Shown: positions 32,120-54,839, counted from the first letter of the stretch. The stretch: 64,000 nucleotides of DNA from Candidatus Bathyarchaeia archaeon (GCA_038727135.1 JAVYWL010000001.1:128001-192000); one strand, 5' to 3'. Numbers and translations: made by a program. The notes: generated from the sequence alone by a model not told the origin.

Positions 32120-33205
32120 CTAAGTTATATGTGGAGAAGGTTTTACGTCAGAGGCTTTAGCCCAGAAAAGGTAAACTTTTGTCTGCATTAGGAAGCTTAG
32201 CCTTTTCAACACTTTTGCCAGCCCTTCACTGTTTAGCTTTTCTATTTTTTCTTTGAATTCCGTGTGGCTTGGGTAGGCTTTGCTTGCTGGTATGATTCTT
32301 TTTCTTGGGATGACGCCTTTCTCTGAAAGTTCTGTTAGGATTTTTATGATCTCGCTTCTGCCGATTTCGTTTATCTTTTCTATGTTGCATTTCTGGTTTT
32401 GGAGCATGTAGGGCTTAAAGCCTAGGGCTTCCAGCTTTTCTATGGCTTTTTGCAGATGGGGGTTGGGTTTGCTTTCTGCTATTTTTTGCATTCCAGCCCT
32501 TTCAAAGAAGGGGTTGTATTTTGCCATAACTGCCAGTGTTTCCACGTAGGGTGTTCCAGCTAATGGTAGGGTTTCTTTGACGAGTTTTGTGCCTAAGCCT
32601 ATTGCACGGTATTTTGGGTGTATTATTACTCGGGTTATTGTGCTGACTTGTTCTTGGAGTTGTTGGTGGTTTCCTTTCCAGACTTGGCTTCTGCCGAACA
32701 TTGTTGGCGGCGGGTGGCTGTAGACGATTACTCCGCATGTTTCTTCTTCGCGTTTCATGGCGAAGATTTTTCTTGGCGGTGGCAGGTGGCTTGAGCGGTA
32801 GTGGAATTGGCTTAAAGCCTTGTAGTCGGCTGTTGTGCCTTGTTCTATACGTATTTCTCGGGTTAGGCTGCACTCTTTTGCTGGTGTGTTTGGTTGGTGG
32901 TGGACTGTTATTTCTTTGCCTAACCTCTTGTGGATGTGAACTGATGGGTTTAGGTCTTCGTGGAGGTCTGTGTGGGTTGTGGCGGCTATAACTGTTTTTG
33001 CCATGCGTCTTGCTGTTTTTTGGAGGTTGTATGCCACTATTTTTGCTGTGTCGCGGTCTAGAGTTGCTGCGAACTCGTCTAGTATCCAGAATTGGGCTTG
33101 GCTTTCTATTAGTTTGGCGATTTTGTATCGGTATTTTTGTCCTTCGCTGAGTTGCCGATAGGTGCGGAGGAATAGGAAGGCGTCATTTAGGCCTACTAGG
33201 CTGAG
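32120..33205 (-). pseudogene. 5'-truncated ABC-ATPase-GNAT acetyltransferase fusion (COG2401-like)
   Basis: The frame upstream of the GTG at 33037 reads LSLVGLNDAFLFLRTYRQLSEGQKYR...FWILDEFAATLDR (ABC signature and Walker B) up to a TAA at about 33208. Walker A is missing. GNAT motifs FHYR, RVIIHPKYRAIGLG, MAKYNPFFERAG are intact. Confidence 0.8.
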
Positions 33206-33974
33206 TTAGCCATGTGTTTTGGTCTTCTGCCCATTCTGCTTGCATTTCGCGTTGCCATCGCCACTGGTCGTTTTCCAGCTGGCGCCTAATCTTTTGGAGG
33301 ATTTCGCGTTTTAGTGGTCCGTTGGGTTCTGTGGCTTGTTGGTGGGTTACGTGGCTTTTTGCGTAGTCGCTGTAGGCTGGGTCGTGCCAGATCCGCCAGA
33401 AGATGCTGTCTGTGTGCCATGGCGTTGATGTGCATATGAATTTTCCGTTTGTTGCGCTTAGTGTAAAGAGTATGGCGTCGTAGAGTTCTTTGTCGTTTGG
33501 TATAAAATTGAATTCGTCTGCGTAGACGATATGCAATGTTGGTCCGCGTATTGTTTCCGGATTGTTCGGATAAGCCTCTATTATGCTTCCGTTTTTTAGG
33601 CGTACCGCCGTTTGCTGGGGTTTTTCGTATAATCCTTTTGGGAGCCTTTTGAGGAGCGTGTTTATTCGGCGGACGACGTGTTTTGTTTGGCGCCAGCTTG
33701 GTCCAACTATGCCTATCTGCGTGTTTGGGTTTGTTAGTGCGTAGTGGAGTAGGAGGGCGGATACTGTTTGGGTTTTTCCGCTTTGACGGCACCATCTGGC
33801 GGCTGTGAATTGGCTGGTTTGGAACTGGCGGATTAGGTCTGTTTGGTACTGGGTTGGTTGGAAGCCTAGGATTTGGGTGCAGAATTCTATTGGGTCTTTT
33901 GGTATGGGCGGCGTTAGGGCTTCAGCAAGCGCCTGTTCCAGTTGGCGGAGTTTTTGTTTTTGTCTTGGCTTCAT
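33183..33974 (-). pseudogene. terminase large subunit, ATPase domain only (nuclease domain missing)
   Basis: RWCRQSGKT Walker A, IRGPT, YADEF Walker B, STP coupling motif, REMQAEW; ends at 263 aa. Confidence 0.85.
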
Positions 33975-34320
33975 CTATGAGCCTCTCGAGTTTTGCTAGG
34001 TCTTCATCTATTTGGTGTTCGTCGAAGTGAGTGGCTACGCCGTTTATTATTTGGGCTATGTAGGCGGCTACGCGTGCCCATCTTTGCCTCTGGCTGATGG
34101 TTATTCTTTGGGGTTTGCCGTTTTCTGTTTGGTATTGGATTTCTCCTTTTGCCATTTCGGAAGCCATGTTGAAGAGTTCTTCGAGTTGTTTCATGGTTTT
34201 CAGTCTGATTTTCTGGGTATCTGTTTTCACCTCCTCTTTTAGTTCTGCCACTCGTCTCTTCAACATGGCTGTGCGGGAAGGCTTTGCGGTGTCAATTTTG
34301 CTAGGCTGGAAGGACTGCAA
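33922..34320 (-). CDS. helical protein upstream of TerL, candidate terminase small subunit
   Basis: Position and overlap directly 5' of TerL, coiled-coil character; function inferred from synteny only. Confidence 0.5.
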   Translation of the reverse strand: MQSFQPSKIDTAKPSRTAMLKRRVAELKEEVKTDTQKIRLKTMKQLEELFNMASEMAKGEIQYQTENGKPQRITISQRQRWARVAAYIAQIINGVATHFDEHQIDEDLAKLERLIDEAKTKTKTPPTGTGAC

Positions 34321-34335
34321 AATTGGATACCCCCT

Positions 34336-34575
34336 CTAGGTTTTTTGTGCTATGAGGATGCCGCTTACTGTTCCAGTTAAGCCTGTTATGGCGGCGAAGA
34401 TTTCGCTATTCCATCTTCCAAGAAAAGCCAGGTGGGCGACTTCTAGGGCGGATAGGCATATTGTCATGGCTATGGCGAATTTTATGCCTATGAGAAGCCT
34501 TTGGTCTGGTGGGATTTCGCCCTTGCGGGTTCTTCTTGTTAAAGCCTTTTTAATCCAGTCAGGCATGGTTTTCAA
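34336..34575 (-). CDS. small two-TM membrane protein
   Basis: Basic N-terminus plus two hydrophobic helices; overlaps the upstream gene. Confidence 0.55.
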   Translation of the reverse strand: MKTMPDWIKKALTRRTRKGEIPPDQRLLIGIKFAIAMTICLSALEVAHLAFLGRWNSEIFAAITGLTGTVSGILIAQKT

Positions 34576-34951
34576 CCCTCTGTTGGTGGTGTTTTTTGCC
34601 CTTTATTGAGGCGCGTTTGCCGCCCACCAAGAAGCTGTTTAGGAGCTGTTTGGCTTCTTCAGGCGGAACATGGGCTTTGGCGATTACATTGGTGTTGCTT
34701 GTCCAAGCCAGTGGCACAGCCGTATAGTCAATGTCGTAGAAGCCATCAGCATAGCGAAAACAGTTCTGAGCCAAAATAATATGCCGGTTCTTAGAACCCA
34801 AAACGCCTAGAAATATGCCCCAACTGACGACCGGAACGTCTATGCCGTTTAAACCGCCGCTTAGGCTTTTGCCTATGCTGGCGTCAAACCACTCAACACG
34901 AACCAAATCACCAAGACTTAAACCTTTAACCCGCCTAACAACCTCCCTCAT
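34559..34951 (-). CDS. hypothetical virus-associated protein (SH3-like beta start GDLVRVEWFDAS)
   Basis: 130-aa ORF heading the terminase operon. Confidence 0.55.
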   Translation of the reverse strand: MREVVRRVKGLSLGDLVRVEWFDASIGKSLSGGLNGIDVPVVSWGIFLGVLGSKNRHIILAQNCFRYADGFYDIDYTAVPLAWTSNTNVIAKAHVPPEEAKQLLNSFLVGGKRASIKGKKHHQQRVENHA

Positions 34952-35029
34952 ACACCATCATCAAACAGAACACAAGCAAGGATTGAATATAAAGAGAGGC
35001 AAAATTCAGAAATTTACAAATTCATAAAC

Positions 35030-35527
35030 TTAAGGGATACGAACGCCTTTGGGAATTATAGTTGAGAAATCTATTTCTTTTTTCCGTTCATCCCATTGAG
35101 CAATAAAGATATGCCTATCGCGCGAATAGTAAAGTATATCATTCCTTCTGGCAACATTAAAAAGAAGATTTATTGAATTTGAGACTCCTTTTGGTGAAAG
35201 TATTATAGAATACAATGGTAAGGCAACCTTGCTGTATCCTAACAATTGGGAAAAATCCCGTAGGTTTATTCTACCGAGTTTACATTCAATAAGTCCCAAA
35301 TGCGCTTCTTTGTCTGATTTTACAACAACCCCGGTTACATCAACTTCAACCTCATACGTTTGGTGGTCAGGAAAGTATACATGAAAACCTTTCTCAAGAA
35401 GCCATTTTGAGAGAACCTTTTTAGAAGTATCCTCGACACATATTCTAGCATTTTTAAACTTACTTTGCAACGTTTTCTTGAACCACAAACAGACATCAGG
35501 ATACATTTCTTTCTCTTTCTTATACAA
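35030..35527 (-). CDS. small PD-(D/E)xK nuclease-like protein
   Basis: N-terminal E (KEKEMY), EVDVTG, IECK, then SQLLGY helix (Q..Y motif typical of Mrr/RecB-like nucleases). Confidence 0.7.
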   Translation of the reverse strand: MYKKEKEMYPDVCLWFKKTLQSKFKNARICVEDTSKKVLSKWLLEKGFHVYFPDHQTYEVEVDVTGVVVKSDKEAHLGLIECKLGRINLRDFSQLLGYSKVALPLYSIILSPKGVSNSINLLFNVARRNDILYYSRDRHIFIAQWDERKKEIDFSTIIPKGVRIP

Positions 35528-35534
35528 TTCCTTT

Positions 35535-36515
35535 TCACTTCTTCTTTTTAGATTCCATCCATTTGGTCAGTCGTTTATGCCTTTTAACGAAATTTGCGTA
35601 TCTTACGCAACCCAAATCCGCGCAAATCTGCCAATAAGAGTCGTAATGCTTTCCACGAATTTCTAAAGGTAGTTTCTCAGAATTTTCAGCAGGATGCTTC
35701 GGTTTAGTTTTTCTTCTTTTTGGCGGATTGCAAAAGTTTGCCTTTGCAAACCCCTTCGTCTTATTATATTCTGCAAGTTCTTCAAGTATTTCTTGTTTAT
35801 GGGACATATAGAAACCTATTTTCTCAAAATCATCTGCAAAAATTTTTATTTGGTGCTCTCTCGCCCAAGCATCCTTCCGTCCAGCCTTATATTCCCTTAA
35901 ACTTGGGTCTCTAGTATTAGGGTGACCCCACTGAATAACATCTACAGGAATTCCCAAATGATCTTGCAAAAGATGACAAATTTGAACCGGCAAACGCCAA
36001 TTGGATGGACTGTTAAGGACATCCAGATAAACCCTACATTTTCCCCACCTATTTCTGTTCGCCCACCTGGCAGATCCAGCAACATCGGCAAATCCGCGGA
36101 TAAATTCCTTTTTAATGGAATCGCTTGACTCAAAAATTTGGTCGGGAATTTCGAACTCATAGTAAGAGCTTCTACCTTTCATAAGCATTCTGATATTCCG
36201 CAAAAACATGGTATTTTTTAATGTTTCGAGTACAAGATAGACCGAATGTTCGCTCTCAGTTTTTCTAACGTTAACATCTGCAAGTTCATTAACCCTATTT
36301 ATGGCTCTGTCCAAGCTTAACAATATTTTATCTTTTTGTGTTATCTTCTTCTCTACACCTTCAACCTCTAAATTCCTAAAGGGAAATTCTATGGAAATTC
36401 GCTTTACTCTTCCTTGATCAGATATTTCGCCCCTAGCGGTTATTAATCCAATAAAATAAGCCACATCTTCATCGATATAGTCAAGCGAGGTCTTCTTCGA
36501 CTTCAATTTCTTCAA
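35535..36515 (-). CDS. double LAGLIDADG-like domain protein, third-party to or subunit of a restriction system
   Basis: AYFIGLITARGEI and KEFIRGFADVAGS resemble the two LAGLIDADG helices; IPDQIFESSDSIKKEFIRG matches the usual block before helix 2. Confidence 0.65.
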   Translation of the reverse strand: MKKLKSKKTSLDYIDEDVAYFIGLITARGEISDQGRVKRISIEFPFRNLEVEGVEKKITQKDKILLSLDRAINRVNELADVNVRKTESEHSVYLVLETLKNTMFLRNIRMLMKGRSSYYEFEIPDQIFESSDSIKKEFIRGFADVAGSARWANRNRWGKCRVYLDVLNSPSNWRLPVQICHLLQDHLGIPVDVIQWGHPNTRDPSLREYKAGRKDAWAREHQIKIFADDFEKIGFYMSHKQEILEELAEYNKTKGFAKANFCNPPKRRKTKPKHPAENSEKLPLEIRGKHYDSYWQICADLGCVRYANFVKRHKRLTKWMESKKKK

Positions 36516-37344
36516 CCCTATTCTTCCTGAATATTAAGATGTATTCATGAACTTTATTCACAATGAAAACATACGGATAGCCCAATGGTCGCAAGTTACT
36601 GTACTCTTTACGTCTATCCCAAATTATTATATCTTCAAGAAGAAAACCTATCTCCGCCATCATATTTGCTACGCGCATATGAAACGGAATGAACTGAGAA
36701 CCTTGACGAATATCCATAACAATAACGATACATCGTTTACCGTTTTTTAAAACAACATAAACTTTTTCAAAAATAGACTTCAATTCATCCATAAACTTAT
36801 TGAAATCTGAGATGTTCCCGAGATCCCTTTCTAAAGACGAATATGGTCTTGGTTCCTTATAGTCTGCCGTCCTCTTTCTTGTATGAATGTTCCAGTAGGG
36901 GGGAGAAGTTATCACTAAATCCACAGAGTTAGGTTTTACATACATCAATAGGTTTTTGGCGTCCTCACAATAAATATCAGGATCTTCAACACCAAGGTGT
37001 ATAAGCTTCTGTTGAGATATCCTCTTTTTTGCAAGCTCTACAAAATCTGGGTTGATATCAAAACCAATTCCCTTCCGTTCCAAGTCTCTAGCAGCAACTA
37101 TTGCACTACCACTACCCATAAAGGGGTCTAAAACCACATCACCTTTTTTAGTATATATCTCAATCAGTCTTCGACATAATTCCACAGGAAACATAGCTGG
37201 ATGTTTGAGTTTAACTTCTTCCCTTGACTTTACAATATCCCATATGCTAATAGAATATCTCTCCCAAGTTTTCCCATCTAACTCGTTCAACTTCTCCTTT
37301 TTCTTAATGGTTGCCTGAACTTCCTGGTCATTCATAAGCCTCAC
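36481..37344 (-). CDS. amino (likely N4-cytosine) DNA methyltransferase
   Basis: HPAMFP, VLDPFMGSGS (motif I), DLVITSPPY (motif IV), IIIWD..K, HEYILIFRK. Confidence 0.92.
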   Translation of the reverse strand: MRLMNDQEVQATIKKKEKLNELDGKTWERYSISIWDIVKSREEVKLKHPAMFPVELCRRLIEIYTKKGDVVLDPFMGSGSAIVAARDLERKGIGFDINPDFVELAKKRISQQKLIHLGVEDPDIYCEDAKNLLMYVKPNSVDLVITSPPYWNIHTRKRTADYKEPRPYSSLERDLGNISDFNKFMDELKSIFEKVYVVLKNGKRCIVIVMDIRQGSQFIPFHMRVANMMAEIGFLLEDIIIWDRRKEYSNLRPLGYPYVFIVNKVHEYILIFRKNRVEEIEVEEDLA

Positions 37345-37436
37345 TACTCTAAATTGTATTTGTGTAGGTTATTTATAAGTTGAGATATTATGAAAGTGCA
37401 AGGTAAGAGCGCGGTGGTTTAGGGTAAAGTGAAAGC

Positions 37437-37655
37437 ATGTACGACAAAGACGTTGACATACTTTACCTGCTATTTAAAGAGGACCAAAGCCACGAAGTGA
37501 TGGAGGCTGATCCAGACATCTACCGAGAACTCGGAAAAGGCGAAATCAGTCATATCCACAGCCATCAAAAACTTCACTTCCGAAGGAAGCCCTTCCAGAC
37601 TTTTCAAGAAGCCCCAACTCCTCAACCCTTAATAAAGCATGAAACAATAAAATAG
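37437..37655 (+). pseudogene. degenerate DUF2283-like small protein
   Basis: YDKDVDILYLLF matches the YD..D.LY motif; the C-terminal half diverges and the upstream gtg aaa gca tg tac looks like a 1-nt deletion. Confidence 0.45.
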
Positions 37656-37679
37656 CTTTCACAAACATAGACCGGCTGG

Positions 37680-38594
37680 ATGAAAATGAAACCCAGAAAG
37701 TTTGAAGGCATATTTGTCCCATGCATTACGCCTTTCACGGAAAAAGGCGAAATAGACTTTGAAGCACTACGCACATGCACACGGTTCTGGATTGAAAATG
37801 GCATAGATGGGCTTATGCCTTGTGGCAGTAATGGCGAAGCCCCCTACCTGGCGAGGGAGGAACGCCAAAAAATAGTCGCCACAGTCCTAGAAGAGGCTAA
37901 AAACAGCGTGAGGGTTGTTGCTGGCACTGGTGCGCCCAGCACATGGGAAACCATACGCCTAACAAGAGACGCCAAGGACTTGGGCGTTGACGCCGCAGTA
38001 GTGGTTACACCCTACTATTTTAGGCTTTCAAACCGAGAACTAATAGCCCACTACAAAGCTGTTTTAGAGGCCGTAGACCTGCCAATAATCCTATACAGCG
38101 TTCCAAAGTTTACAGGCTACGCCCTAGAACCAGCCGTAATAGCAGAACTCGCCAAAGAATATTCGAACGTGGTGGGCGTGAAGGACAGCGGCGGAAACAT
38201 AGCCACAATAACGGAGACAATACGCCTAGTAGGCGAAAAAATGGCTGTTTTGGCTGGAACAGCTGACGTTGTGCTGCCAACACTAATGTTGGGAGGAAAA
38301 GGCGCCGTAATAGCCGTAGCCAACACCTACCCTAAGCTTTGTGCAAACCTATACAAAGCCTACAAGCAAGGCAATATCGGAAAAGCGGCAAAACTTCAAA
38401 GGACAATAACCCACATAAACGAAGTTCTAGTCAGACGCTTCAACCAGCTCTCAGCCATAAAAGAAGCAATGCGGATGTTAGGATTGCCTGGAGGCTACCC
38501 GCGCATGCCAACCCTACCCCTAAGCGATGTGGAAAAAGCCGAAATAAAAAGCCTACTGGAAGCTGTCAAGGTGGAGGCGGAAACTGAAGCCTAA
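37680..38594 (+). CDS. dapA: dihydrodipicolinate synthase family aldolase
   Basis: ITPF, CGSNGE, AGTGA, VTPYY, ILYSVP, GVKDSGG (Schiff-base Lys). Confidence 0.85.
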   Translation: MKMKPRKFEGIFVPCITPFTEKGEIDFEALRTCTRFWIENGIDGLMPCGSNGEAPYLAREERQKIVATVLEEAKNSVRVVAGTGAPSTWETIRLTRDAKDLGVDAAVVVTPYYFRLSNRELIAHYKAVLEAVDLPIILYSVPKFTGYALEPAVIAELAKEYSNVVGVKDSGGNIATITETIRLVGEKMAVLAGTADVVLPTLMLGGKGAVIAVANTYPKLCANLYKAYKQGNIGKAAKLQRTITHINEVLVRRFNQLSAIKEAMRMLGLPGGYPRMPTLPLSDVEKAEIKSLLEAVKVEAETEA

Positions 38595-38769
38595 GCCTCT
38601 TTATTAGGGCTTTCACCCGCTCCCCATCCCTCAAGTAATCCTCGATTATGGCGTTTACAAGCTGATAAATCCTCAAATCATTCAACAATGCCAACTTCCG
38701 AACCTCCCGATGCAAGTCTTCACGAACTTCCACGACTGTCCTCCTAAAATCCCTAGACAACCCGCGCAC
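38566..38769 (-). CDS. ribbon-helix-helix DNA-binding protein
   Basis: RTVVEVREDLHREVRKLA...IYQLVNAIIEDYL pattern; last gene of the tail operon. Confidence 0.65.
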   Translation of the reverse strand: MRGLSRDFRRTVVEVREDLHREVRKLALLNDLRIYQLVNAIIEDYLRDGERVKALIKRLRLQFPPPP

Positions 38770-40369
38770 CCACCTTATAACGGCTCAAATGGTCTGTCCT
38801 GCTGCGAAGCACATACAGGTAATCCGCCAGCATTGGCGTTTCCCTTCCAAGCTCCAGTGTAACCTCAAGCGTCTGCGTTTTGGCGTCAACATAGTATTCC
38901 ACGCTTTCAACACGGAAATAGCCGCCAACACCCTCGTTTGGTAGTTCCATATAAACTCTGTCCGCGGCAAGAATTGGCGTAACGCCATAGTCTAACACTG
39001 TGGTTTTTATGGTTAACGATTCTGTTGGGTTCTTGTAATAGTTGAGGAGGGCTTTAGCCCTTAAAAGGCATTCATTGTCGCTTTTCAACTCTTCATCAGT
39101 TTCTGTTAGCTCCCTTAAGCCGTAGGATGATTGGCTGCCGGCGTCTTCTTGCATGGCGTAGTAGCGGCTGTCCGACAGGTACAGGTGGTCAAGATAAAGC
39201 CAAATGTCCTCACATATCTGGCTGAAATAAATGATGAAGTCTATGCCCGTGAAGGGGTTACGCCAGTCAGCGTTGCCAACCTTGTTCCATGAAGGCTGGT
39301 CTGTCCGTAAAACAAGTTTGCCCCAAGTGTTTGCCGGCGGAAGCATAGGCTTAATGTCCATGTCAAAGTGGTCGTTGCTGCTTTGCCAGAGGCGACAGTA
39401 AGCGTTTGCTAATCCGTAGGCTGGATAATTCCCCCACATAATCCAAGTGTTAATCTGTTTGAAGCCTTCTGGACCACTAAACTTCAGATTGTTTAAGCTG
39501 CGGTACAAGTAGAGTTGAGTGCCTCCGCCATAAGCGTAAACACAGTAAGCGTCCGAATACTTCTTCTGCCCATCCTGCGTCACATGGTCTGAGTAGGTGC
39601 TTATTCCCCCGTTAGACTGCCAGCCAACCGTGGACTCTGTCCAACCATCCTCATTAGCGTCTGAAGGCAATTTTCTTTCGGCTGCTCCGTAAACGTGGAT
39701 TCTGTTTCTTATGCGGCTAATGTCCTTGCGGTATTCATACTCTTCAATAATTTCGGAAAGGCTTACAGGCGAAGTTTTGCTGTTCCGCTTGAAAAACTCG
39801 AATTTTCCGTCTGGAGCCACTCGGAAATCGTAGCCTATAACGCCATTATAGTCGGCTGAATCGGCAATATAACGGATTATGTCAAAAACAGGCGTGTTTT
39901 CATAATTCAGCTTAACATAAGTTGTGGTTGTAGTCTCTACAAGCTCTGTGCTGTCCCGCGTGTGGCTCAAACCAACAAGGTTATCCAGCAAATATTTGAC
40001 TATATCCTCGCCTTTCATGTTTTCAAAAATGCCCGTAAAAACTCGACGGAAGAGGCGCTCTCCAACACATCTTCCGCCCACACGGATATAATGCTCGGCT
40101 GGCGTGTTTTCGTATTTTAGGCTTTCAATTCGGCAGGTGATTATCTTGGGAACATTTGTGCCTCTCCCGATGGAAATTGAGCCATCCATGCCAACAGTCA
40201 ACGGAATAGAGCCGCCGGGGCTATATTTTCCATTCCAGTTTTGCAGTGTAAGCTCGAAGCTGCTTACTTCTTTTGTGCAGCCGAGATGCACTCGACACTC
40301 GATAATGTCGTTTTCATCTATGGAATAACTGCCGAAAGCAACACTTATTCGTGGAATGTCAACGCTCAT
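38753..40369 (-). CDS. tail tip / baseplate hub-like protein with inserted beta-sandwich domain
   Basis: Follows the tape measure; GYDFRVAPDG, IRNRIHVYG, SQSSYGLRE, RAKALL, FRVESVEY pattern of hub/tail proteins; central aromatic-rich insert. Confidence 0.65.
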   Translation of the reverse strand: MSVDIPRISVAFGSYSIDENDIIECRVHLGCTKEVSSFELTLQNWNGKYSPGGSIPLTVGMDGSISIGRGTNVPKIITCRIESLKYENTPAEHYIRVGGRCVGERLFRRVFTGIFENMKGEDIVKYLLDNLVGLSHTRDSTELVETTTTTYVKLNYENTPVFDIIRYIADSADYNGVIGYDFRVAPDGKFEFFKRNSKTSPVSLSEIIEEYEYRKDISRIRNRIHVYGAAERKLPSDANEDGWTESTVGWQSNGGISTYSDHVTQDGQKKYSDAYCVYAYGGGTQLYLYRSLNNLKFSGPEGFKQINTWIMWGNYPAYGLANAYCRLWQSSNDHFDMDIKPMLPPANTWGKLVLRTDQPSWNKVGNADWRNPFTGIDFIIYFSQICEDIWLYLDHLYLSDSRYYAMQEDAGSQSSYGLRELTETDEELKSDNECLLRAKALLNYYKNPTESLTIKTTVLDYGVTPILAADRVYMELPNEGVGGYFRVESVEYYVDAKTQTLEVTLELGRETPMLADYLYVLRSRTDHLSRYKVGARVV

Positions 40370-40370
40370 G

Positions 40371-44497: not shown

Positions 44498-44502
44498 AAG
44501 GC

Positions 44503-47527: not shown

Positions 47528-47808
47528 AGCTTCCTCAATTGTTCAATTAGGCTAACCACGTCGTGCGTCTGTAAAATGGAGAGAAGCTCGACAATTTGTC
47601 TGGAACGCTCCTGTCTTGTAATTTCGTCCACTTCATAGTCTGGTAAAACGCCATTTTCAATGCTTTCCTTTTCATGCAGAAGCCAAAGAACGGCGTGAGC
47701 TTTCTCGAAAAGCTCTCGGCTTATTTTCTTTTCAACATAGTAAAGCCTTGTCAGTTTATCATGTAAAGGCTTCCAAGCATCATCTACGTCTTTGCGGGTT
47801 TTAGACAA
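47524..47808 (-). CDS. hypothetical protein
   Basis: 94-aa ORF coupled (ATGA overlap) to the fibre gene. Confidence 0.55.
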   Translation of the reverse strand: MSKTRKDVDDAWKPLHDKLTRLYYVEKKISRELFEKAHAVLWLLHEKESIENGVLPDYEVDEITRQERSRQIVELLSILQTHDVVSLIEQLRKL

Positions 47809-47820
47809 TTAAGCCACCAT

Positions 47821-48309
47821 CTACGGGTTTTGGAATTGCACTTCCACTTCAGCCGTCCACTCTTCACCGCTGCTTTTGGTCCCTTTGCTTGCCACTATAC
47901 GAAGCATGTTTACAGCAGCGTCGCTGCCTCCATTAGCCACTGTAACCTCATTCCAAGCAAAGTTTGCCTCGTTGCTTCCAAAGACACTTCTGAAAACGGC
48001 TTTCTTGTCGCCGGCTTGTGAAGGGCCTTGTGGATAGCCGCTTGCCATGCCCTTATAATACTTGTTTGTGCCTTGAAGCCCCGTTTGACTTTCGCTTTCA
48101 GAGGCTGTTCCGTCGCCCACGCCGATGTAAGCGTTTGAGCTGTTAAAGGGGGTTGCAGTTAATCCCAAAATTAAGTTCCACATTTCATTCATGCCTTCGA
48201 TGAGGAAGCAGTTGTGGCTGCTTTCTTCTACGCTGTAGGGTTTCTGCTCGTAGACACGCCTTTTAATCACACGATACTTCACCAACGCGCCTACTCTAAT
48301 CTTCTCCAT
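47821..48309 (-). CDS. putative virion structural protein
   Basis: AYIGVGDGT..E...QTGLQG, EANFAWNE, KGTKSSGEEW motifs recalled from tailed-virus structural proteins; ATG 48309 follows a ggagg RBS. Confidence 0.6.
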   Translation of the reverse strand: MEKIRVGALVKYRVIKRRVYEQKPYSVEESSHNCFLIEGMNEMWNLILGLTATPFNSSNAYIGVGDGTASESESQTGLQGTNKYYKGMASGYPQGPSQAGDKKAVFRSVFGSNEANFAWNEVTVANGGSDAAVNMLRIVASKGTKSSGEEWTAEVEVQFQNP

Positions 48310-48358
48310 TTTCAATCCTCCATTTTGTTTTGGGTTTCTCGCATAAGCGGAAAGCCGC

Positions 48359-48592
48359 CTATGTTCGAGCCACCTCCCGCAAGGTTCCGTCAGCATTCCA
48401 AGAAAAGGTGAGGGTGAAAAGAAGCTCGTCGCCCATAAACGCCTTGAGGGTGTTAACAGTGCCATCAGCGTTCCAAGTAAACGTCAGCTTTGTAACCCTT
48501 TTACCGCTTGGCGGCGCCATAAGCCCGCATAAGGCGCTGTGGACAGCCTTGAAAGCCTCTTCATAACGCCAATAGGGCACCTCTTGGTTCAT
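48359..48592 (-). CDS. small protein with tandem LTF(T/S)WNADGT repeat
   Basis: LTFTWNADGTVNTL and LTFSWNADGTLREV; ATG 48592 after ggaggag. Confidence 0.6.
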   Translation of the reverse strand: MNQEVPYWRYEEAFKAVHSALCGLMAPPSGKRVTKLTFTWNADGTVNTLKAFMGDELLFTLTFSWNADGTLREVART

Positions 48593-48615
48593 TTTGCTTG
48601 CACTCCTCCATGTTC

Positions 48616-48855
48616 TCAGTGTTTTGCGGTGTCCACGAGCTTCTGAAGCCAAACTGTGATGGCTGTTGGTCCAACAAGCGCCGTGTAAACGTCAAAGGTC
48701 ATTCCAGCCAAGTCCAAGCCAAGAGCAGAGAAAACCGCAATAGCCACTGTCCGCAGGAACTTTCGCCAGTTGAAGGGCTTATCTTGGGCTGCAAATCCGA
48801 GAAAGGCGTAGGTTAAGGCGGCGCCCACGCCTAAACCAATATGTAGAAGGTTCAT
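48616..48855 (-). CDS. small membrane protein (holin-like topology)
   Basis: 2-3 hydrophobic helices in 79 aa, inside the virion operon, ggaggtgg RBS. Confidence 0.5.
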   Translation of the reverse strand: MNLLHIGLGVGAALTYAFLGFAAQDKPFNWRKFLRTVAIAVFSALGLDLAGMTFDVYTALVGPTAITVWLQKLVDTAKH

Positions 48856-48964
48856 CCATCCACCTCCTTAATGTTAATGCCTTTTATTGGCTGTTCCGCC
48901 ACTCCAGAAATGGGGAAGCGCATCCATTTTCGAGGGGAGAAAGGAGAAAACCGCAAAAACAGCA

Positions 48965-50185
48965 TTAGGCTTCCTTCCGCCTTTCTGGAGTGGTTTCGGA
49001 GCGCTCCCACAACTCCCAACCCCACTTTGAGGCGTTCTTACGAAACTCTTCTGGGCGGATAAGCCCTAATTCGGCGGCTTTCAACATGTCTGCAACGCTT
49101 ATCTGGGGCGTCTTAGGAGAACCCCAGTTTAGGCGAACCCCAGCCTCAACAGAGTCTAGTCCAGCCTGAAAAAGAACGGGCTTGAAAATGGCGTGTTCCA
49201 CTTGCCGCTTAATGTAGCGTTGAATGGGTTTTATGAGCATATCCTGCAGCTCCAATGCGGCTTTGGCGCTGGCTTCGGTGAAGCCCGGAGTGCTGAAAAG
49301 CCTCGGCAGTGGCGTTTCACAGCCAAGATAGAACTGGTTAACAATGTAGTCGATGTAATATTCAAATCTGGCTCTGGGGTCTATTGTGAGCGGTTTTATG
49401 TCGCCTCTCCCGCTATAGAATAGCCAGACACCCTCTTCTGGGCGGCTCTTAATGGCTTTTTCAAACTTTTGGATAGTGCCGGCGTCAGCCCTCTCCAGTA
49501 GGGCTAAAACGTCTGGTCCGGCATACTTCTCAAAGATTTTTGGCATTATGCGTTCAATTTTTGCTTTCATCCAGGCGTAGGCTGGTCGCCGGTCAGAAAA
49601 GAAGGCAAGCGTATGCAATAGAACCTGTAAAACACCTGTTCCAAAACCGGAAGAGCCTAAACAGTTTATTCGCCAGTGGATAACCGCCTCTGGATTTAGG
49701 GTTTCGCCGCCATAAGCCAAGCGGAGCTTGTAACCCTCAACCTTGTATGGGATTTTCAGTCCGCCATCTTGGATTAGGCTGTACTCGATTTTTTCTACGG
49801 CGTCCACTGGCAACCGCTGGAGACCTGTGAGCCTTTCAGGTGTTATTTTGAGCCAGAAATCGTTTCCACAGGCGATTAGAACTCTTGCCATATCGCATAA
49901 GAGCATGTCCAAATTAGCCTCTTCGTTAAATTGGTCTATGACTCGTTTGGCTTCCCCAGCCCTTGCATAGTTCTCGTTTACCGTTGTGTAGAAGCCCATT
50001 CCAACGGCTGAAGCCGCCAAAAGGTCTACGCTTGCCTTGCATGCTGGATCCCGCTCATAAAGCCTCATAACATCAGCCAACGGAATGCTCGGCGTCTCGT
50101 AGACCATTTGAGGTTCTACGGAAGCGTAGCCGCTATGCCTCTTCAAAGTGAAAGCTTCAATGAGCCTTCTTAAAACGCCGCTCAT
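48965..50185 (-). CDS. portal protein
   Basis: LYERDP...SVD, LIACGNDF, VIHWRIN....GFGTG, GFTEASA, IKPIQRYIKRQVE..IF; 406 aa. Confidence 0.85.
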   Translation of the reverse strand: MSGVLRRLIEAFTLKRHSGYASVEPQMVYETPSIPLADVMRLYERDPACKASVDLLAASAVGMGFYTTVNENYARAGEAKRVIDQFNEEANLDMLLCDMARVLIACGNDFWLKITPERLTGLQRLPVDAVEKIEYSLIQDGGLKIPYKVEGYKLRLAYGGETLNPEAVIHWRINCLGSSGFGTGVLQVLLHTLAFFSDRRPAYAWMKAKIERIMPKIFEKYAGPDVLALLERADAGTIQKFEKAIKSRPEEGVWLFYSGRGDIKPLTIDPRARFEYYIDYIVNQFYLGCETPLPRLFSTPGFTEASAKAALELQDMLIKPIQRYIKRQVEHAIFKPVLFQAGLDSVEAGVRLNWGSPKTPQISVADMLKAAELGLIRPEEFRKNASKWGWELWERSETTPERRKEA

Positions 50186-50189
50186 AAGC

Positions 50190-50697: not shown

Positions 50698-50729
50698 CCT
50701 TTTTCAAGGATTCTTCAGCGACTGTTTGG

Positions 50730-51683
50730 CTACAGCGAAGTGCTAATGTTGACCATTTTGGCTACTGCCTTGCTGCGTAGTACGCCTAAGCCAAAGCGGG
50801 TTGTTGCCCTAACTCCGAACTCGCCCGTCCTAGGGTCTTCCCAGTCCTCCACAGTTATGTCTCTGCGGAGAAGCATGACCGCTGCCACTCTTGTGTCTAT
50901 GGCGTAAGCCACTCCGTTGGGCACTAGGGTGCTTGCCAAAACCTTCATGCCTAAAACGCTGCCGACAACGCCCCGCTCCAAATCCACATGTTCGGAAGGC
51001 AGGTACTGCGCATGAATGAACTTGTCATCGTTAAGCAGTTGGTGGAGTTGAACCTCGTTTAGGGCTAGCACTGTTGGACGCCAGTTTTCGCCCCTAACAG
51101 CATTGTGAAGCTTAACAACGCCAGACCAGTTTAGGGCTTGCCCATTATTGTCTATTGGGGCGCCGCCAGCCAAATCCGCATTGGCAATAGCCCCATACAT
51201 GGATAGAATCTTGTTGGTTTCAGCCTCGCCTAGGGCTCTTCCAACCTTCTCAGTCATGGTTTCCATAACATTCCATGTGGCGTCTTCCAAAAACTCCCTA
51301 GTCCAAACTTCAGAAGCCTCAGCCACAATGTTTGTGTAAACGTCCACGGTGCTGACCTTCTTGCCACTAAGCCTCGTGTAGGCGCCCTCAGCATAACGAT
51401 AAGCCACAGCCTTCTCATCTAACGGGAATCTTTCCATGGCTTCAGTTGTGGGACGCACCATTACGATTTCTCTTCCAATCATTTCTGGGTAGGCAGCCTC
51501 AACCAGCGTATCATGCATATGCCCAATGGCGCCAACGGTGTCGCTGAAAAGCCTCTCTTTAAGGGCTACCTCACAGTAACGCCTCAAAAAAGGGTGCGAC
51601 GAAGCCCTTCGGCTCAGATTCTCCATGAGCTGGCGGAACTCGCTGTCCGTCTCCATCAAACTCTCAAAAAGTCTCGGTTTCAC
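50730..51683 (-). CDS. major capsid protein (HK97 fold)
   Basis: AEGA, TREFLEDA..NV......VGRALG..E, GSVLGMKV..S..VPNG, RFGLGVLRSKAV; 317 aa. Confidence 0.9.
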   Translation of the reverse strand: MKPRLFESLMETDSEFRQLMENLSRRASSHPFLRRYCEVALKERLFSDTVGAIGHMHDTLVEAAYPEMIGREIVMVRPTTEAMERFPLDEKAVAYRYAEGAYTRLSGKKVSTVDVYTNIVAEASEVWTREFLEDATWNVMETMTEKVGRALGEAETNKILSMYGAIANADLAGGAPIDNNGQALNWSGVVKLHNAVRGENWRPTVLALNEVQLHQLLNDDKFIHAQYLPSEHVDLERGVVGSVLGMKVLASTLVPNGVAYAIDTRVAAVMLLRRDITVEDWEDPRTGEFGVRATTRFGLGVLRSKAVAKMVNISTSL

Positions 51684-51695
51684 GACATGTCCCTC

Positions 51696-52127
51696 CTACT
51701 TTTCCACGTAGATGAAGATGAGGTCTTCAGCCGCAGAGGCAGACTCCAAAGCCCACCCAAGCTTGCGGTTATAGTATATGGTGTAGGTTGCTGTCCCACC
51801 TTCGTTCACGGCTTGGTCTGTCAACTGCAGTACCCGCCTACTGGAATCAGCACCGTAAACCGCTTTACCACGAGTTACAGCGCCGCCAACCTTCACCTTA
51901 ACTCTTCCACGAACCAGCACTGGGCAAGGATCGCCTGCCGCCACACTCTTTAGGGCTATGCCAATACAGTCCTGCGCTGAAGCTGCTGGGCTAACCTTGT
52001 CATCAGCACTTAAATAGACTGGGTCGCCCTTTGTTATGGCTGCTGCAGCCTCAAAGGTTTCAATAACGGCCCTAGGGTCGTCTGTTTCGCCGATACCCAT
52101 CCAAGGCTTACCAGTGTTGTCAGCCAT
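51696..52127 (-). CDS. DUF2190-like capsid decoration/cement protein
   Basis: FEAAAAITKGDPV, IGIALKSVAAGD, VGGAVTRG, GWALESASAAEDLI; directly upstream of MCP. Confidence 0.8.
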   Translation of the reverse strand: MADNTGKPWMGIGETDDPRAVIETFEAAAAITKGDPVYLSADDKVSPAASAQDCIGIALKSVAAGDPCPVLVRGRVKVKVGGAVTRGKAVYGADSSRRVLQLTDQAVNEGGTATYTIYYNRKLGWALESASAAEDLIFIYVEK

Positions 52128-52235: not shown

Positions 52236-53405
52236 TCATTCACCGTTCCCGCCAAACTTCTGAAGCTTGTAGATGACGCCGCGAAGTTCTTGGCACATGC
52301 GCTGCGGGCCTAGACCCCAGCTTCTCTCAACCATTGGGCTTGGCAAAACGTTCCTAAGCATTCCAATAACTGTCTCCACTGGAATCACACGCTTGGCATT
52401 TTTCACAAAAACCCCTTCAACCAAGCTTCCGCTGTTTACGCTGACGCCTTTGCCAACGCTTTGGGAAGCCTTAACTGGTGTCATGTAGGCTGGATGCAAA
52501 CTGAGCCAGTCGCGGATTTTCCGTTCATCCCACATCTTCTCCTTGGCAAAGAATATGCTCTGAACAAGGCTGGTGTCCGGCTCCGCTTTAGGGCGTCCCA
52601 TGATGGCTAAAACTCCATTTTCACGGTCAAGCCAAACAGTGGCGAAATGCTCCGGCATAAAAGCCTCCACGTCCTGGTAAAATCCAAGAATGTACTCTTC
52701 AGAAGCTATTGGGCTGAAGCCCTGCTCACTAAGCCTCTCCAAGATTTGGATGTTTGCCTCTGGCACGCCTGGAACAGCCACAAGGCTGAGTTCGGCGTTG
52801 TGCAATCCTCTAGGAATTTTGCCATCAACAAAATCCAGCCTCTCATAGTCGGCGCCTATGCTCACGTGGCGGATTAGCCCCTTGCGGATTTTTTCAGCTA
52901 TTTCGTCATCGTAAATTTCAGCCTCATACCATAGGCTCTTGCCATCCCATTGGGCATCTACAACCTTTCCAACAGCATTCGCGGCAGCCACATGCTCCAC
53001 ATAAACGGGCGCGGAAACAAGCCGACTGGCAAAGGCTTCAAGCTCTTCTGGCAAGTAAATGTTCAAGTTTCGGCTCATGCCAGCAGTTAATGCTATGCCG
53101 CGGATGCGCAGCGGCTTATCAACAACCTTCTCAAGCACTTTGAAGGGCAAGACGGCAAAGTAGTGCTCCTTTCTGCCACGATGCCTTTCAAACCATTCTT
53201 TGGCCTTCTCCAAAGTCCATCCCTTAGAAACATCAAAAAGGTAGCTAACCACCTCAGTGGAGCCTTTGCCACCCTTGGGCTTGCCAATGATGGCTTTAAT
53301 CCCATCAGCCTCAGAAAGCACAATAGTGCGGAGACTTTCAGGCTCAAACTCATCCGGGTTTCGGTGGCCACTACGAATATAGTTGGCGGTTACTTCCCAA
53401 GGCAA
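52236..53405 (-). CDS. prohead (capsid maturation) protease with a duplicated accessory domain
   Basis: IRGIA...SRNLNIY..EEL, VYVEH (His), HVSIG (Ser), ELSLVAVPG.PEA. Confidence 0.85.
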   Translation of the reverse strand: MPWEVTANYIRSGHRNPDEFEPESLRTIVLSEADGIKAIIGKPKGGKGSTEVVSYLFDVSKGWTLEKAKEWFERHRGRKEHYFAVLPFKVLEKVVDKPLRIRGIALTAGMSRNLNIYLPEELEAFASRLVSAPVYVEHVAAANAVGKVVDAQWDGKSLWYEAEIYDDEIAEKIRKGLIRHVSIGADYERLDFVDGKIPRGLHNAELSLVAVPGVPEANIQILERLSEQGFSPIASEEYILGFYQDVEAFMPEHFATVWLDRENGVLAIMGRPKAEPDTSLVQSIFFAKEKMWDERKIRDWLSLHPAYMTPVKASQSVGKGVSVNSGSLVEGVFVKNAKRVIPVETVIGMLRNVLPSPMVERSWGLGPQRMCQELRGVIYKLQKFGGNGE

Positions 53406-53558
53406 CCGGACACCAGCCCCTTAACACGCCGTTCTCAGTAAAAGAGAATACAGCAAAGAAAATGAAAAGCCGAATTGTACCACACAAGGGCCAATCTATT
53501 AGCCCAAACACGGCCCAACCTGTTAGCCTAATGGCAAAATTTTCAGAATGGGAAAAGG

Positions 53559-53885
53559 CTAGTCTTTTGTTTTCCACCATATTATTGGGAAGAACCAGAA
53601 GAAGGGCCAGATAACCCAATACTCCTCAGCAGCATGGGTGCATATTGTAAATATTGTTCCGCATTTCTTGCACCTCATTGTGCGTCTTCCAACAAGCTCT
53701 AGCTCTTTTGAGCCACATTTTGGACATGCATAATCCTCCACTTTTATGACTTGCGGCCTCTCGTAGTAGGCTGAGGTTTTCATCCATTTTAGGAAGGACA
53801 GTGCCATAAAGGCGAAGATTAGGAGGAAAAGCACAAGCATTAGGATTATGATGATGCTTGCGATAAGCGAAACGTCAAAAGCCAT
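53559..53885 (-). CDS. membrane-anchored Zn-ribbon protein
   Basis: N-terminal TM, CPKCGS...CKKCG, Trp/Phe-rich C-terminal tail. Confidence 0.6.
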   Translation of the reverse strand: MAFDVSLIASIIIILMLVLFLLIFAFMALSFLKWMKTSAYYERPQVIKVEDYACPKCGSKELELVGRRTMRCKKCGTIFTICTHAAEEYWVIWPFFWFFPIIWWKTKD

Positions 53886-53890
53886 TACGC

Positions 53891-54136
53891 CTAGATCACC
53901 CATGTTATTATTTCCTCTCCACGCTTTTGTTTTCGCCTTAACCAAGCCCTTATGAATTCCTCTATCTCGCGTTTGTTGTAGGGGTCTTGCCAAGCGTTTT
54001 CTAGGGCTTGACACTTGTTTAACGCGCCCACAAGCCCAAAATAGGCTAAAAGCTCATGGTAAAGCAGCTCTTTTTCCGTTTCATTTAGCATTACGCCGAT
54101 TTCGGCTAGGATTGCGGTTAGAACTGCTCGGCTCAT
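53891..54136 (-). CDS. hypothetical protein
   Basis: ATGA-coupled to the upstream RHH gene. Confidence 0.55.
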   Translation of the reverse strand: MSRAVLTAILAEIGVMLNETEKELLYHELLAYFGLVGALNKCQALENAWQDPYNKREIEEFIRAWLRRKQKRGEEIITWVI

Positions 54137-54564
54137 GGGCGTTTCCTCGCGCCTTCTTTGGTTTTGAGCCATTCCTCGTACTGTTCTAGGGCTCTTTGAA
54201 TCTGCTTGTAGATGAAGTCTTCAGCATTGGCATAGGGCGTGTCCATCTCTTTTAAGGCTTTGTTTAGTCTTTCATAGTCTTCCCTTGGAACTTCCACATA
54301 CTCGTATTCGCCGGATTCCCACTTCAGCATGAAGCGCACCGCCTGGCGGATAAACTCCTCCTTAGTTGTGTAGCCCCTTCCTCTGTGGGTTTGGATGAAG
54401 CGTTCAACCTCGCCTAGGAGTTCTGGCGGCAATATAACCGACTGGTATAGCATAGCCTCAATGGCGTCTTGGTATGTTTGCATCTTGCTGGTTTGAGCCA
54501 TAAGCTCGCCGAGCAGAGCGGTGAGTTTCTGATGGACGTCATCTGATATGCGCAACGTTTTCAT
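54133..54564 (-). CDS. multi-RHH (CopG/Arc-like) regulator
   Basis: MKTLRISDDVHQKL, SVILPPELL.EVE.....GYTTKEEFIRQAVR and a third similar unit. Confidence 0.7.
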   Translation of the reverse strand: MKTLRISDDVHQKLTALLGELMAQTSKMQTYQDAIEAMLYQSVILPPELLGEVERFIQTHRGRGYTTKEEFIRQAVRFMLKWESGEYEYVEVPREDYERLNKALKEMDTPYANAEDFIYKQIQRALEQYEEWLKTKEGARKRP

Positions 54565-54656
54565 TTTAACCCCTTTTCTCCGTGATATTTTGTGTGGAGT
54601 AAGTCTTTTAAGTGTTTCTGATATACTAAATATACAGAATACGCTGAAGGCAAAAA

Positions 54657-54839
54657 GTGATGCCTAGAAAACGCATAGTAAAAGTTGTCCTAAGCGCCGA
54701 GCAAAAGGAAATATTAGAGGAGCTTTCGAAGAGACTTGGCACAAGCGAAAGCGAAACCCTAAGGATGGCTTTAATGAACTACGCGAAGGAGCTAAGCCTA
54801 ATGAAGGAGCGCGTCCGAAAACAAGCCCCAAAACCCTAA
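54657..54839 (+). CDS. CopG-like RHH regulator (divergent)
   Basis: VKVVLSAEQKEILEELSKRLGTSESETLRMAL. Confidence 0.75.
   Translation: MMPRKRIVKVVLSAEQKEILEELSKRLGTSESETLRMALMNYAKELSLMKERVRKQAPKP

Follow-up and report, generated by a model that had tools for sequence, protein, structure and literature searches.

The window, the whole stretch of 64,000 nucleotides analysed here, comes from a hot-spring Bathyarchaeia MAG and carries, at 32.1-54.8 kb on the minus strand, head, tail and DNA-packaging genes grouped in one chromosomal cluster. Pfam and PHROG profile searches bear out the gene content of the morphogenesis-only head-tail cluster proposed in a preliminary description, as well as the interruption of its structural genes by host-type genes (DUF2283 with DHDPS, and DUF5305). 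The remark that the only other genes are small regulators holds as far as the regulators go but misses a type II methylase island. From the high-coordinate end, the features are:

54657..54839, plus strand: RHH (CopG-type) regulator (PF01402, E 1.4e-5), divergent from the structural strand
53371..54564, minus: small leader genes, conserved within the genus (the next four lines)
54133-54564, minus: r143, with an RHH-like N-terminus
53891-54172, minus: r93
53559-54014, minus: membrane Zn-ribbon protein
53371-53619, minus: doubtful 82-aa ORF
52236..53405, minus: candidate prohead protease (S78-like; phrog_976, E 0.006), first gene of the conserved head module
51696..52127, minus: capsid cement/decoration protein (PF09956, 8.6e-13; PF22758)
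50730..51683, minus: HK97-fold major capsid protein, MCP (PF05065, E 4e-7; phrog_267, 5e-14)
50422-50697 and 50190-50462, minus: h91 and h90, two small conserved head/connector genes
48965..50185, minus: portal protein (PF04860, 9e-5, under the curated cut-off)
46106..48855, minus: variable block p79, p97, p214 (phrog_23653), p94, p473
45094..46095, plus: inserted host-type DUF5305 membrane protein gene (PF17231, 1.8e-14)
42675..44856, minus: p117, p461 and p152, order conserved
41800..42702, minus: tail tube protein (PF18906, 5.7e-17; phrog_290)
41423-41887, minus: tail assembly chaperone, with an out-of-frame extension ending near 41260 (G/GT type)
40910..41274, minus: HK97 gp10-like tail-completion gene (C-terminal half 40910-41170, phrog_5, 2.5e-17)
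40371..40913, minus: putative short tape-measure protein (TMP), 180 aa, by position and composition
38753..40369, minus: baseplate hub, YqbQ-like (PF24032 YqbQ, 3.8e-13; phrog_400)
37437..38594, plus: inserted host-type DUF2283 and DHDPS-family genes (PF00701, 5e-82)
35030..37344, minus: low-GC (0.37) island with a type II DNA methyltransferase and two unknown genes
33922..34951, minus: three small genes, t34b, t34a and t33, 5' of TerL throughout the family
33183..33974, minus: stump of the terminase large subunit (TerL), ATPase domain (PF03237, 2e-17; phrog_2, 2e-30)
32120..33205, minus: remnant of a terminase-coupled ABC-ATPase/GNAT fusion

Two of the head assignments are weaker calls. For the protease, the closest Atlas clusters that bear a name belong to Peptidase_S78 (0.92). 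The portal match to PF04860 is sub-threshold, but 10 of the 24 members of its family match that model and no other; the portal structure model is too poor for use (pLDDT 51). The small genes h91 and h90 keep their position in nearly all relatives (dN/dS 0.01-0.37). Within the variable block, p473 bears three N-terminal repeats of ~100 aa that are swapped for others between sister species, and p79-p473 is a candidate adsorption/fibre region. The product of p461 has an alpha/alpha-toroid, C5-epimerase-C-like assignment in Pfam and Atlas (PF06662, 1.7e-7, above cut-off) and is likely a glycan-acting virion enzyme. In the chaperone gene, TTTTTTA at 41468-41462 forms a slippery heptamer for a -1 shift; the out-of-frame extension of this gene is conserved in all four species compared. 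The tiny TMP noted earlier fits its position and has a Gly/Ala-rich hydrophobic core, but it matched no family in the Pfam and PHROG searches; in 21 aligned relatives the coding stretches measure 519-687 nt (~173-229 aa), so that small size is a family-wide trait, not peculiar to the window copy. No contractile-tail sheath was found in the cluster, nor was a TerS recognised among its genes: t34b, tried for this role, is unlike TerS in its predicted beta-barrel fold and has weak ribosomal-protein matches only, t34a is a membrane peptide, and the helical t33 is the remaining candidate. Gene-order maps place the RHH regulator ahead of the protease gene also in relatives located elsewhere, and it is thus part of the ancestral virus; it is retained in sister genomes without the structural genes (in G012 homology picks up again at 54667).

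The inserted genes have histories of their own. The DUF5305 gene is missing from compact relatives, whereas DHDPS, which has a 36% paralogue elsewhere in the genome, is kept in G011, G012 and G013 although the structural genes on both sides are gone. At ~99% identity (dS 0.02-0.06), the methylase island is shared with G005 only. GC3 of the structural genes (0.50-0.57) lies inside the host-gene range (0.37-0.64). The reported lack of mobility functions was upheld within the window: none of the 14 PF00589 integrase matches of the genome falls there, none of the 67 window ORFs scanned (38 + 29) matched a replication family in Pfam, and neither an att-like direct repeat nor a tRNA-derived duplicate was found in it. 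Pfam likewise gave no integrase or replication family for those ORFs of G003 (8), G007 (10, the scan leaving out one 283-aa ORF) and G021 (29) that lack an orthologue in the window, or for 24 ORFs at and near the cluster of the complete genome G041. At the Pfam level, the cluster appears able neither to excise nor to replicate itself.

In sister species TerL has 454 aa with Terminase_6N and 6C domains, of which the window copy keeps aa 1-258. Here 981 bp are missing relative to the sisters (junction 33202-33205), a deletion that removed the TerL nuclease domain (aa 258-454) and also the start of the coupled ATPase-acetyltransferase, whose remnant is without its first ~136 aa (Walker A side). 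At a second junction, 32107-32114, 712 bp are missing. No second TerL exists elsewhere in the genome; with neither nuclease domain nor replacement, the packaging enzyme of the window copy fails as a working terminase. The gp10-like gene has suffered a 1-nt deletion at ~41160 compared with three sisters (G003, G005, G007), in which it is intact at 121 aa. The truncated TerL, the frameshifted gp10 and the defectiveness surmised from them are thereby accounted for, and the TerL and gp10-like lesions, read from the assembled sequence alone, indicate that the window copy is recently dead.

A fixed locus under purifying selection

In sister species and other genera alike, the cluster has TldD/PmbA on one side and RHH-HK-RR-NrdR-NrdD on the other, a constancy of flanking genes which the preliminary description had singled out for checking. 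Both flanks are identical in kind in G003, G005 and G007; G009, whose contig ends inside the element, offers the right flank and head-side genes only, and the right flank recurs in other genera (G021, G019). In gene-order maps of all loci, NrdD/NrdR/RR/HK adjoin RHH-Prot at many of them. The adjacent kinase is a PAS/GAF histidine kinase and, together with the response regulator, is retained in genomes without the cluster.

The branching pattern of the MCP+portal tree (97 rows, 17 of 114 sources having been dropped for incomplete genes) follows this location closely. One clade of 41 (SH-aLRT 99) holds 26 of the 27 locus-linked rows and excludes 25 of the 26 that come from other sites. Both kinds of copy coexist within single MAGs (G005; L097 and L101). 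The exceptions are L109 and L135, the latter locus-linked yet with head genes from another clade. The groups seen in a tree of the flanking HK+RR reappear in one built from four proteins of the element, with pairwise distances correlated at r=0.94 over 19 taxa, a congruence that rests in part on physically linked host genes. With the unlinked ArgRS, MCP identity to G000 declines in step: ArgRS/MCP values (per cent) are 92/99 for G005 and G009, 74/84 for G021, 73/84 for G045, 72/76 for G042, 70/79 for G019 and 63/73 for G041. The cluster has been inherited vertically at a fixed locus, co-diverging with its host.

Against G003, G005, G007 and G009, dN/dS of the head, tail and terminase genes is 0.03-0.2; the MCP, 97-99% identical across five sister species, stands at 0.03 and the portal at 0.06-0.10. 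Synonymous divergence is akin to that of the flanks (G005, G007, G009), with portal dS of 0.54-0.64 against 0.65-0.69 for HK and 0.58-0.62 for NrdD, and low dN/dS at flank-like dS is repeated in five other lineage pairs. The TTTTTTA slip site is conserved along with the chaperone extension. Structural genes have thus been under long-term purifying selection in several lineages.

Erosion, mosaicism and relatives at other sites

Three genomes that are 91-98% complete (G011, G012, G013) have lost the structural genes and keep remnants. At least seven locus-linked copies show a cut portal or a tail module that is partly or wholly absent (the eroded copies being G021, L092, L098, L101, L107, L123 and L130; in G021 the portal is cut and the tail lost), gene absence in these being judged by tblastn with window queries, which divergent genes could escape. 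In other lineages, erosion is visible in about a third of the locus-linked copies. Conservation is strongest in the head genes, which stay intact despite the loss of tail or portal in G021, L098, L101 and L107; dS in the eroded lineages is saturated and thus uninformative on selection after erosion. The cluster is dispensable, and often lost or eroded. Synonymous divergence is also mosaic, with 0.13 for the MCP where its neighbours have 0.55, and the protease allele of the window genome is equidistant (85-87% identity) from all four sisters. Together with the ~99% identical methylase island, these patterns indicate that DNA at the locus moves between species.

The virus family is common in Bathyarchaeia. 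Relatives at other sites include two with integrases (L080, PF00589; L041, PF16795), and second, related copies occur in G005 and G006. Integrase-bearing close relatives at variable sites, together with a phylogeny incongruent with the host, had been named beforehand as what would refute the GTA-like reading; such relatives exist, but outside the locus-linked clade, which is host-congruent. In passages of Xu et al. 2024 (PMC11705971), BATPV1 (JAAKEZ010000002_pro) is reported as a complete provirus of 33,358 bp, from a pipeline that searches for integrase and att sites. Locus L114, on the BATPV1 record, has an MCP 70% identical to that of the window and the same gene order (Prot-Dec-MCP-Portal-p117-p461-p152-Tube-Chap-gp10-p180-Hub-t34b-t34a-TerL), and the HEAT/'CpcE' gene which that paper mentions sits just upstream; L114 is very probably BATPV1. 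The window element follows the gene order of this family in its HK97 MCP, its portal, its TerL and its tail genes, but whereas L114 occupies another chromosomal site outside the locus-linked clade, the window element is fixed beside nrdD/RR, without integrase, att or variable insertion site. The 33-kb provirus in the family suggests that a capsid of this type would have room for all 22-25 kb of the cluster, and one GTA hallmark, a capsid too small for its own cluster, thus finds no indication here.

A proposed immobilised provirus and its possible functions

We favour, with about as much confidence as doubt, an anciently immobilised provirus kept by selection, whose sister copies likely assemble particles carrying host DNA. 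A tailed virus would have had its structural and packaging half fixed beside RHH-HK-RR-NrdR-NrdD before the hosts diverged to ~63% ArgRS identity; integrase and early genes would then have been lost, or were never present there, with vertical inheritance since. In several lineages selection would have maintained functional genes for head, tail, chaperone frameshift and terminase, and the sister species most probably still assemble DNA-filled tailed particles. With neither excision nor replication, packaging would begin on the chromosome in place, so that the particles would carry host DNA and might be GTA-like or lateral-transduction-like, possibly to the benefit of the host. In the window genome the system would have died recently through the TerL and gp10-like lesions. 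The earlier choice between a GTA-like system and a decaying provirus is answered in part on both sides: an immobilised, vertically inherited and selection-maintained element accords with the former, and part of the clade does decay.

A GTA-like system is credible but unproven, judging from the genes. The fuller version is a tentative possibility: a true Bathyarchaeia GTA, in which an independently domesticated tailed-virus module, present beside nrdD/RR in dozens of species, would package chromosomal DNA where it lies and pass it on to related cells. Its switch might be formed by the RHH, the histidine kinase and the response regulator next to it, and the mosaic dS and near-identical methylase island could be traces of transfer. 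Passages of PMC11841831 and PMC5721377 describe, for RcGTA-type GTAs of Alphaproteobacteria, a head-tail cluster without integrase or replication genes, as in the window, and a cluster that is inherited vertically under purifying selection yet in certain lineages often lost or eroded, as in the window clade. The window element differs from RcGTA in its independent origin, unrelated sequences and archaeal host, in a TerL at the cluster end coupled to an ABC-ATPase/GNAT fusion, and in being known from genes alone. Similarly, VTA of Methanococcus voltae (Bertani 1999; Eiserling 1999, as cited in PMC11841831), a tailed-particle system, is defined by experiment (transfer, particles); it is the only experimentally found archaeal GTA named in the review passages concerned, where its characterisation is called cursory. 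Our searches found no literature linking GTAs to Bathyarchaeia, PMC13669383 mentioning both terms in unrelated passages. A true GTA would be, as far as literature searches show, the first archaeal one whose gene set is defined, and its hosts would belong to an uncultured archaeal class that ranks among the most abundant.

Domestication for a purpose other than transfer, as killer or adsorption particles, anti-virus immunity or a capsid shell, seems unlikely. Bacillus offers a precedent in the PBSX-type defective prophages, chromosomally fixed, non-propagating tailed-particle clusters kept by the host. PBSX is contractile, whereas the window has no sheath that we found and encodes the alpha/alpha-toroid enzyme p461; its hub matches the YqbQ family, named by Pfam after a Bacillus protein, and the resemblance is functional only. 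Head genes that outlast tail and portal, active-looking related proviruses in the same genomes and a hypervariable fibre-like region would suit such a role; however, TerL, tail and chaperone genes are likewise under purifying selection where present, and no cargo-loading or toxin-like gene was recognised.

That the cluster is a plain decaying provirus, the inert remnant of an old integration, now functionless in every lineage and with a low dN/dS that dates from its life as a virus or reflects function lost only recently, is improbable. Decay is real in part of the locus-linked clade: the window copy has two breaks, three sister genomes have had their structural genes deleted, G021 has a cut portal and no tail, tail genes are missing from several other locus-linked copies, and cargo and defence genes accumulate inside the cluster. 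Yet ~20 open frames have dN/dS of 0.03-0.2 over dS of 0.4-1.3 in at least six lineage pairs, at rates resembling those of neighbouring host genes and with the slip site kept, and an inert remnant would not outlast divergence to 63% ArgRS identity. Equally doubtful is a still-autonomous temperate virus re-integrating at one site by an integrase in trans or unrecognised, with host congruence reflecting narrow host range, for although integrase-bearing relatives (BATPV1 included), the second copies in G005 and G006, the foreign head genes of L135, the mosaic dS and the shared methylase island favour it, no integrase or replication gene was found by Pfam in the window (nor an att repeat there) or in the G003, G007, G021 and G041 copies, element dS matches flank dS pair by pair, and sisters that lack structural genes have kept remnants of the deletion (G32 tail, DHDPS, regulators) in place of a clean empty site.

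The immobilised provirus provides a concrete gene set, with intact, eroded and deleted genomes, for testing virus domestication in archaea. It also advises caution, as some Bathyarchaeia sequences labelled 'proviruses' or, in IMG/VR, 'viral contigs' are residents of the chromosome flanked by host DNA (L067, L068).

Gene content and order

Pfam and PHROG searches place head, tail and packaging genes in series on the minus strand, from ~54.6 to 32.1 kb.

Features of the cluster
54564-53371, minus: small leader genes
52236-53405, minus: candidate prohead protease (weak alone; neighbours in the Atlas protein-cluster resource are Peptidase_S78 at 0.92)
51696-52127, minus: cement/decoration protein (Pfam/PHROG)
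50730-51683, minus: HK97-fold major capsid protein, MCP (Pfam/PHROG)
between MCP and portal, minus: two small head genes
48965-50185, minus: portal (weak alone; 10/24 family members match Phage_portal and no other family)
46106-47527, minus: 473-aa protein with three internal repeats, last gene of a variable block
45094-46095, plus: interrupting block, DUF5305
43112-44497, minus: p461 (alpha/alpha-toroid, C5-epimerase-C-like), preceded by p117 and followed by p152
41800-42702, minus: tail tube (Pfam/PHROG)
41423-41887, minus: tail chaperone
between chaperone and 180-aa protein, minus: gp10-like gene
40371-40913, minus: 180-aa hydrophobic protein (p180), fits a short tape measure
38753-40369, minus: YqbQ-like hub (Pfam/PHROG)
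37437-38594, plus: interrupting block, DUF2283 and DHDPS
35030-37344: interrupting block, low-GC type II methylase island
between hub and terminase, minus: three small genes
33183-33974, minus: large terminase (TerL) ATPase domain (Pfam/PHROG)
32120-33037, minus: GNAT-containing ORF

The tail chaperone carries a canonical -1 slippery heptamer (TTTTTTA, 41468-41462), and the ~65-aa out-of-frame extension that follows is kept in the sister species G003, G005 and G007. On both sides the flanking genes are ordinary host genes, namely TldD/PmbA, a GNAT gene and two tRNAs on the left, and an RHH gene, two small paralogous genes, a PAS/GAF histidine kinase (HK), a response regulator (RR), NrdR and NrdD on the right. 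The RHH gene, the paralogues, HK and RR share a common orientation. In this region a 74-aa minus-strand ORF (55387-55611) is probably spurious, and for the plus-strand ORF at 55403-55729, the genomes G003, G007 and G021 (the last from another genus) have a counterpart related as a ~43% paralogue to the 110-aa gene at 54970-55302.

No integrase, replication family or att-like repeat was found in the window, and all 14 PF00589 matches of the genome lie elsewhere. The Pfam/PHROG, PF00589 and repeat scans thus bear out the preliminary description of a head-tail cluster devoid of these functions, as do the DUF2283+DHDPS and DUF5305 blocks its claim that host-type genes split the structural operon. 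The tRNA-Ile/tRNA-Arg pair (27.5-27.8 kb) was rejected as an att site, having no genomic duplicate longer than 13 nt. A crude k-mer scan, which cannot establish absence, detected no CRISPR array in the genome. A gene-order survey of 110 further loci (49 from IMG/VR and 61 from genomes) recovered a constant family order, Prot-Dec-MCP-(h91-h90)-Portal-...-p117-p461-p152-Tube-Chap-gp10-p180-Hub-t34b-t34a-(t33)-TerL-fusion, and so the window represents the canonical order plus insertions.

A fixed locus and its provirus-like relatives

By their record titles, the related loci belong to hot-spring and sediment Bathyarchaeia MAGs. The MCP was found in 18 of the 41 relatives searched; five further species of the genus have it at 97-99% identity, and two further genera of the family at 79-84%. 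The complete cluster is bounded by the same flanking genes on either side in G003, G005 and G007. The sister species G009 shares the right flank and the genes of the head side, on a contig that stops inside the element. The right flank is also common to G021 and G019, from other genera, and the flanking genes are constant among sister species and, on one side, beyond the genus. A combined MCP and portal tree covered 97 sources (17 of 114 were omitted, their genes being incomplete). In this tree 26 of the 27 copies beside RR/NrdR/NrdD fall inside one 41-row clade (support 99), and 25 of the 26 whose upstream DNA is unrelated over at least 7 kb fall outside it; the remaining rows, with flanks too short, are unclassified. 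The exceptions are L135 and L109. L135 occupies the locus (NrdD-NrdR-RR-HK-f110-RHH) but has MCP and portal from the family's other major clade, an arrangement suggesting that the head module was replaced or that a second integration took place at the same site.

Locus-linked and elsewhere-sited copies coexist in the same MAGs. Judged by gene content, relatives outside the locus-linked clade look like ordinary proviruses: L080 carries a PF00589 integrase along with a C5 methylase, L041 a PF16795 archaeal integrase, and L114 is on the same record as the 33,358-bp provirus published as BATPV1, with which it is very probably identical. In the locus-linked copies of G003, G007 and G021, the 47 scanned ORFs that have no window orthologue included no integrase or replication family, nor did 24 ORFs within or next to the copy of G041, a complete Bathy-6 genome. 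Among the extra ORFs of those copies are AbiE, PIN, nucleotidyltransferase and metabolic genes.

The evolution of the locus-linked copies parallels that of the host. For 19 of them, one tree was built from the adjacent host HK and RR and another from four element proteins; the two agree in their groups, and the pairwise distances correlate at r=0.94. The unlinked marker ArgRS mirrors this pattern: ArgRS/MCP percent identities to this genome are 92/99 in the genus, 74/84 and 70/79 in two other genera and 63/73 in the complete Bathy-6 genome, the outlier being the L135 genome (73/70). Head, tail and terminase genes compared with those of four sister species have a dN/dS of 0.03-0.2, and dS is flank-like for G005, G007 and G009 (portal 0.54-0.64, HK 0.65-0.69, NrdD 0.58-0.62). 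Five further lineage pairs give the same dN/dS and dS picture, and structural-gene GC3 is inside the host range. The congruence of the element with its host and the low dN/dS values partly support the preliminary description, in that they favour a cluster immobilised, inherited vertically and maintained by selection.

We put forward, with about even confidence, that the cluster descends from a provirus immobilised long ago and that selection has maintained working virion and packaging genes in several lineages. On this account it is GTA-like (gene transfer agent-like) in its evolution, subject to recurrent decay and freshly decayed in this genome. The expected mechanism would be packaging of chromosomal DNA in situ. 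That the cluster is a bona fide GTA we regard as rather unlikely; by analogy with the published 33-kb provirus of the family, the family capsid could contain the entire cluster. In the literature consulted, including PMC10541130, PMC11705971, PMC11841831 and PMC13669383, we found Bathyarchaeia viruses and proviruses but no GTA-like element in Bathyarchaeia.

Lesions, erosion and exchange

Two lesions mark this copy, as proposed from its truncated TerL and frameshifted gp10. In G003, G005 and G007 the intact TerL has 454 aa with ATPase and nuclease domains, and overlaps an ABC-ATPase/GNAT fusion of 493-541 aa. Relative to these sisters, 981 bp are absent from the window at 33202-33205. The loss, which confirms the truncation, costs TerL its residues 258-454 and the fusion its first ~136 residues; the genome has no second TerL. 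A second gap of 712 bp lies at 32107-32114. The gp10-like gene (121 codons) is intact in the same three sisters and has a 1-nt deletion here at ~41160, outside any long homopolymer, in agreement with the proposed frameshift. Both lesions are read from this assembly, the public contigs available for comparison being fragmentary: among the listed assembled Logan contigs compared with 32000-51999, none from sequencing runs X1 and X2 spans 33202-33205 or covers ~41160. Contigs of runs X9 and X17 end loosely at 33201/33202, consistent with an undeleted allele in other populations. X17, an RNA-library run labelled as metatranscriptome, also yielded two contigs of 287-333 nt that match the MCP gene exactly (window 51076-51665); these are no evidence of expression, because DNA carry-over is possible and the same gene served to find the run. 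The fusion gene overlapping TerL (phrog_886) is also seen at L026 (2928-4448), and in relatives sited elsewhere (L041, L061, L145) it likewise comes after TerL.

The comparison of genomes indicates that the cluster is dispensable and prone to erosion. Both structural blocks are gone from three sisters (G011, G012 and G013; 91-98% complete), in which the flanks survive together with the RHH side, DHDPS and a tail fragment of the fusion gene, with somewhat varying deletion end points. In G001 one contig joins the right flank with a small remnant, and another has TerL and tail parts. In G021 the portal is cut, a 21-kb insertion is present and the tube-to-p180 genes are absent. This insertion (composite 23.3-44.2 kb, L031-L032) holds surface-protein genes (NosD/beta-helix, CarboxypepD_reg, signal peptidase), and KaiC-like ATPases and two PIN toxin genes lie past the surviving p117 and hub fragment. 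In L092, L098, L101, L107, L123 and L130, tblastn detected only part of the tail genes or none of them. The dS values of G021, L098, L101 and L107 against their nearest relatives are saturated at 1.1-3 and permit no reading of post-erosion selection. In the 3.0-Mb genome G041 (C1 about 1,436,000-1,488,000; L154-L156) the cluster runs from protease to hub, host rpS10 follows within 4.5 kb of the hub, and the nearest terminase match is 25 kb off on the other side, beyond a response regulator; this cluster may be split.

DNA at the locus also crosses species, as deduced from three observations. The MCP and decoration genes have a dS of 0.13 against 0.55 for their neighbours; the protease allele of this genome is 85-87% identical to that of every one of four sisters; and the methylase island (GC3 0.31-0.36, with two unknown genes beside the methylase) is ~99% identical in G005 only, with dS of 0.02-0.06 against 0.3-0.8 in adjoining genes. 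G003 and G007 carry different cargo at this spot (AbiEi/AbiEii in G003). The island points to a recent interspecies exchange or to a cassette hotspot within the element.

Doubtful protein identities

NCBIfam gave no match for any structural protein of the cluster, and profile searches against PDB sequences returned nothing below E 0.1 for portal, t34b or p180; the portal AlphaFold model has a pLDDT of 51. We discarded t34b as small terminase, since its model (pLDDT 78) is a beta-barrel whose best Foldseek rows are ribosomal proteins (E about 0.02), and p461 as tail sheath, given its C5-epimerase-C/alpha-alpha-toroid likeness. PADLOC reported only the methylase, plus weak mad3/mad8 matches on the ATPase-GNAT fusion. 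The 473-aa protein has three N-terminal repeats of ~100 aa and a basic, repetitive C-terminus; between sister species its N-terminal part is swapped and the last 100-150 aa are 56-64% identical, so that it looks like a fast-changing adsorption protein.
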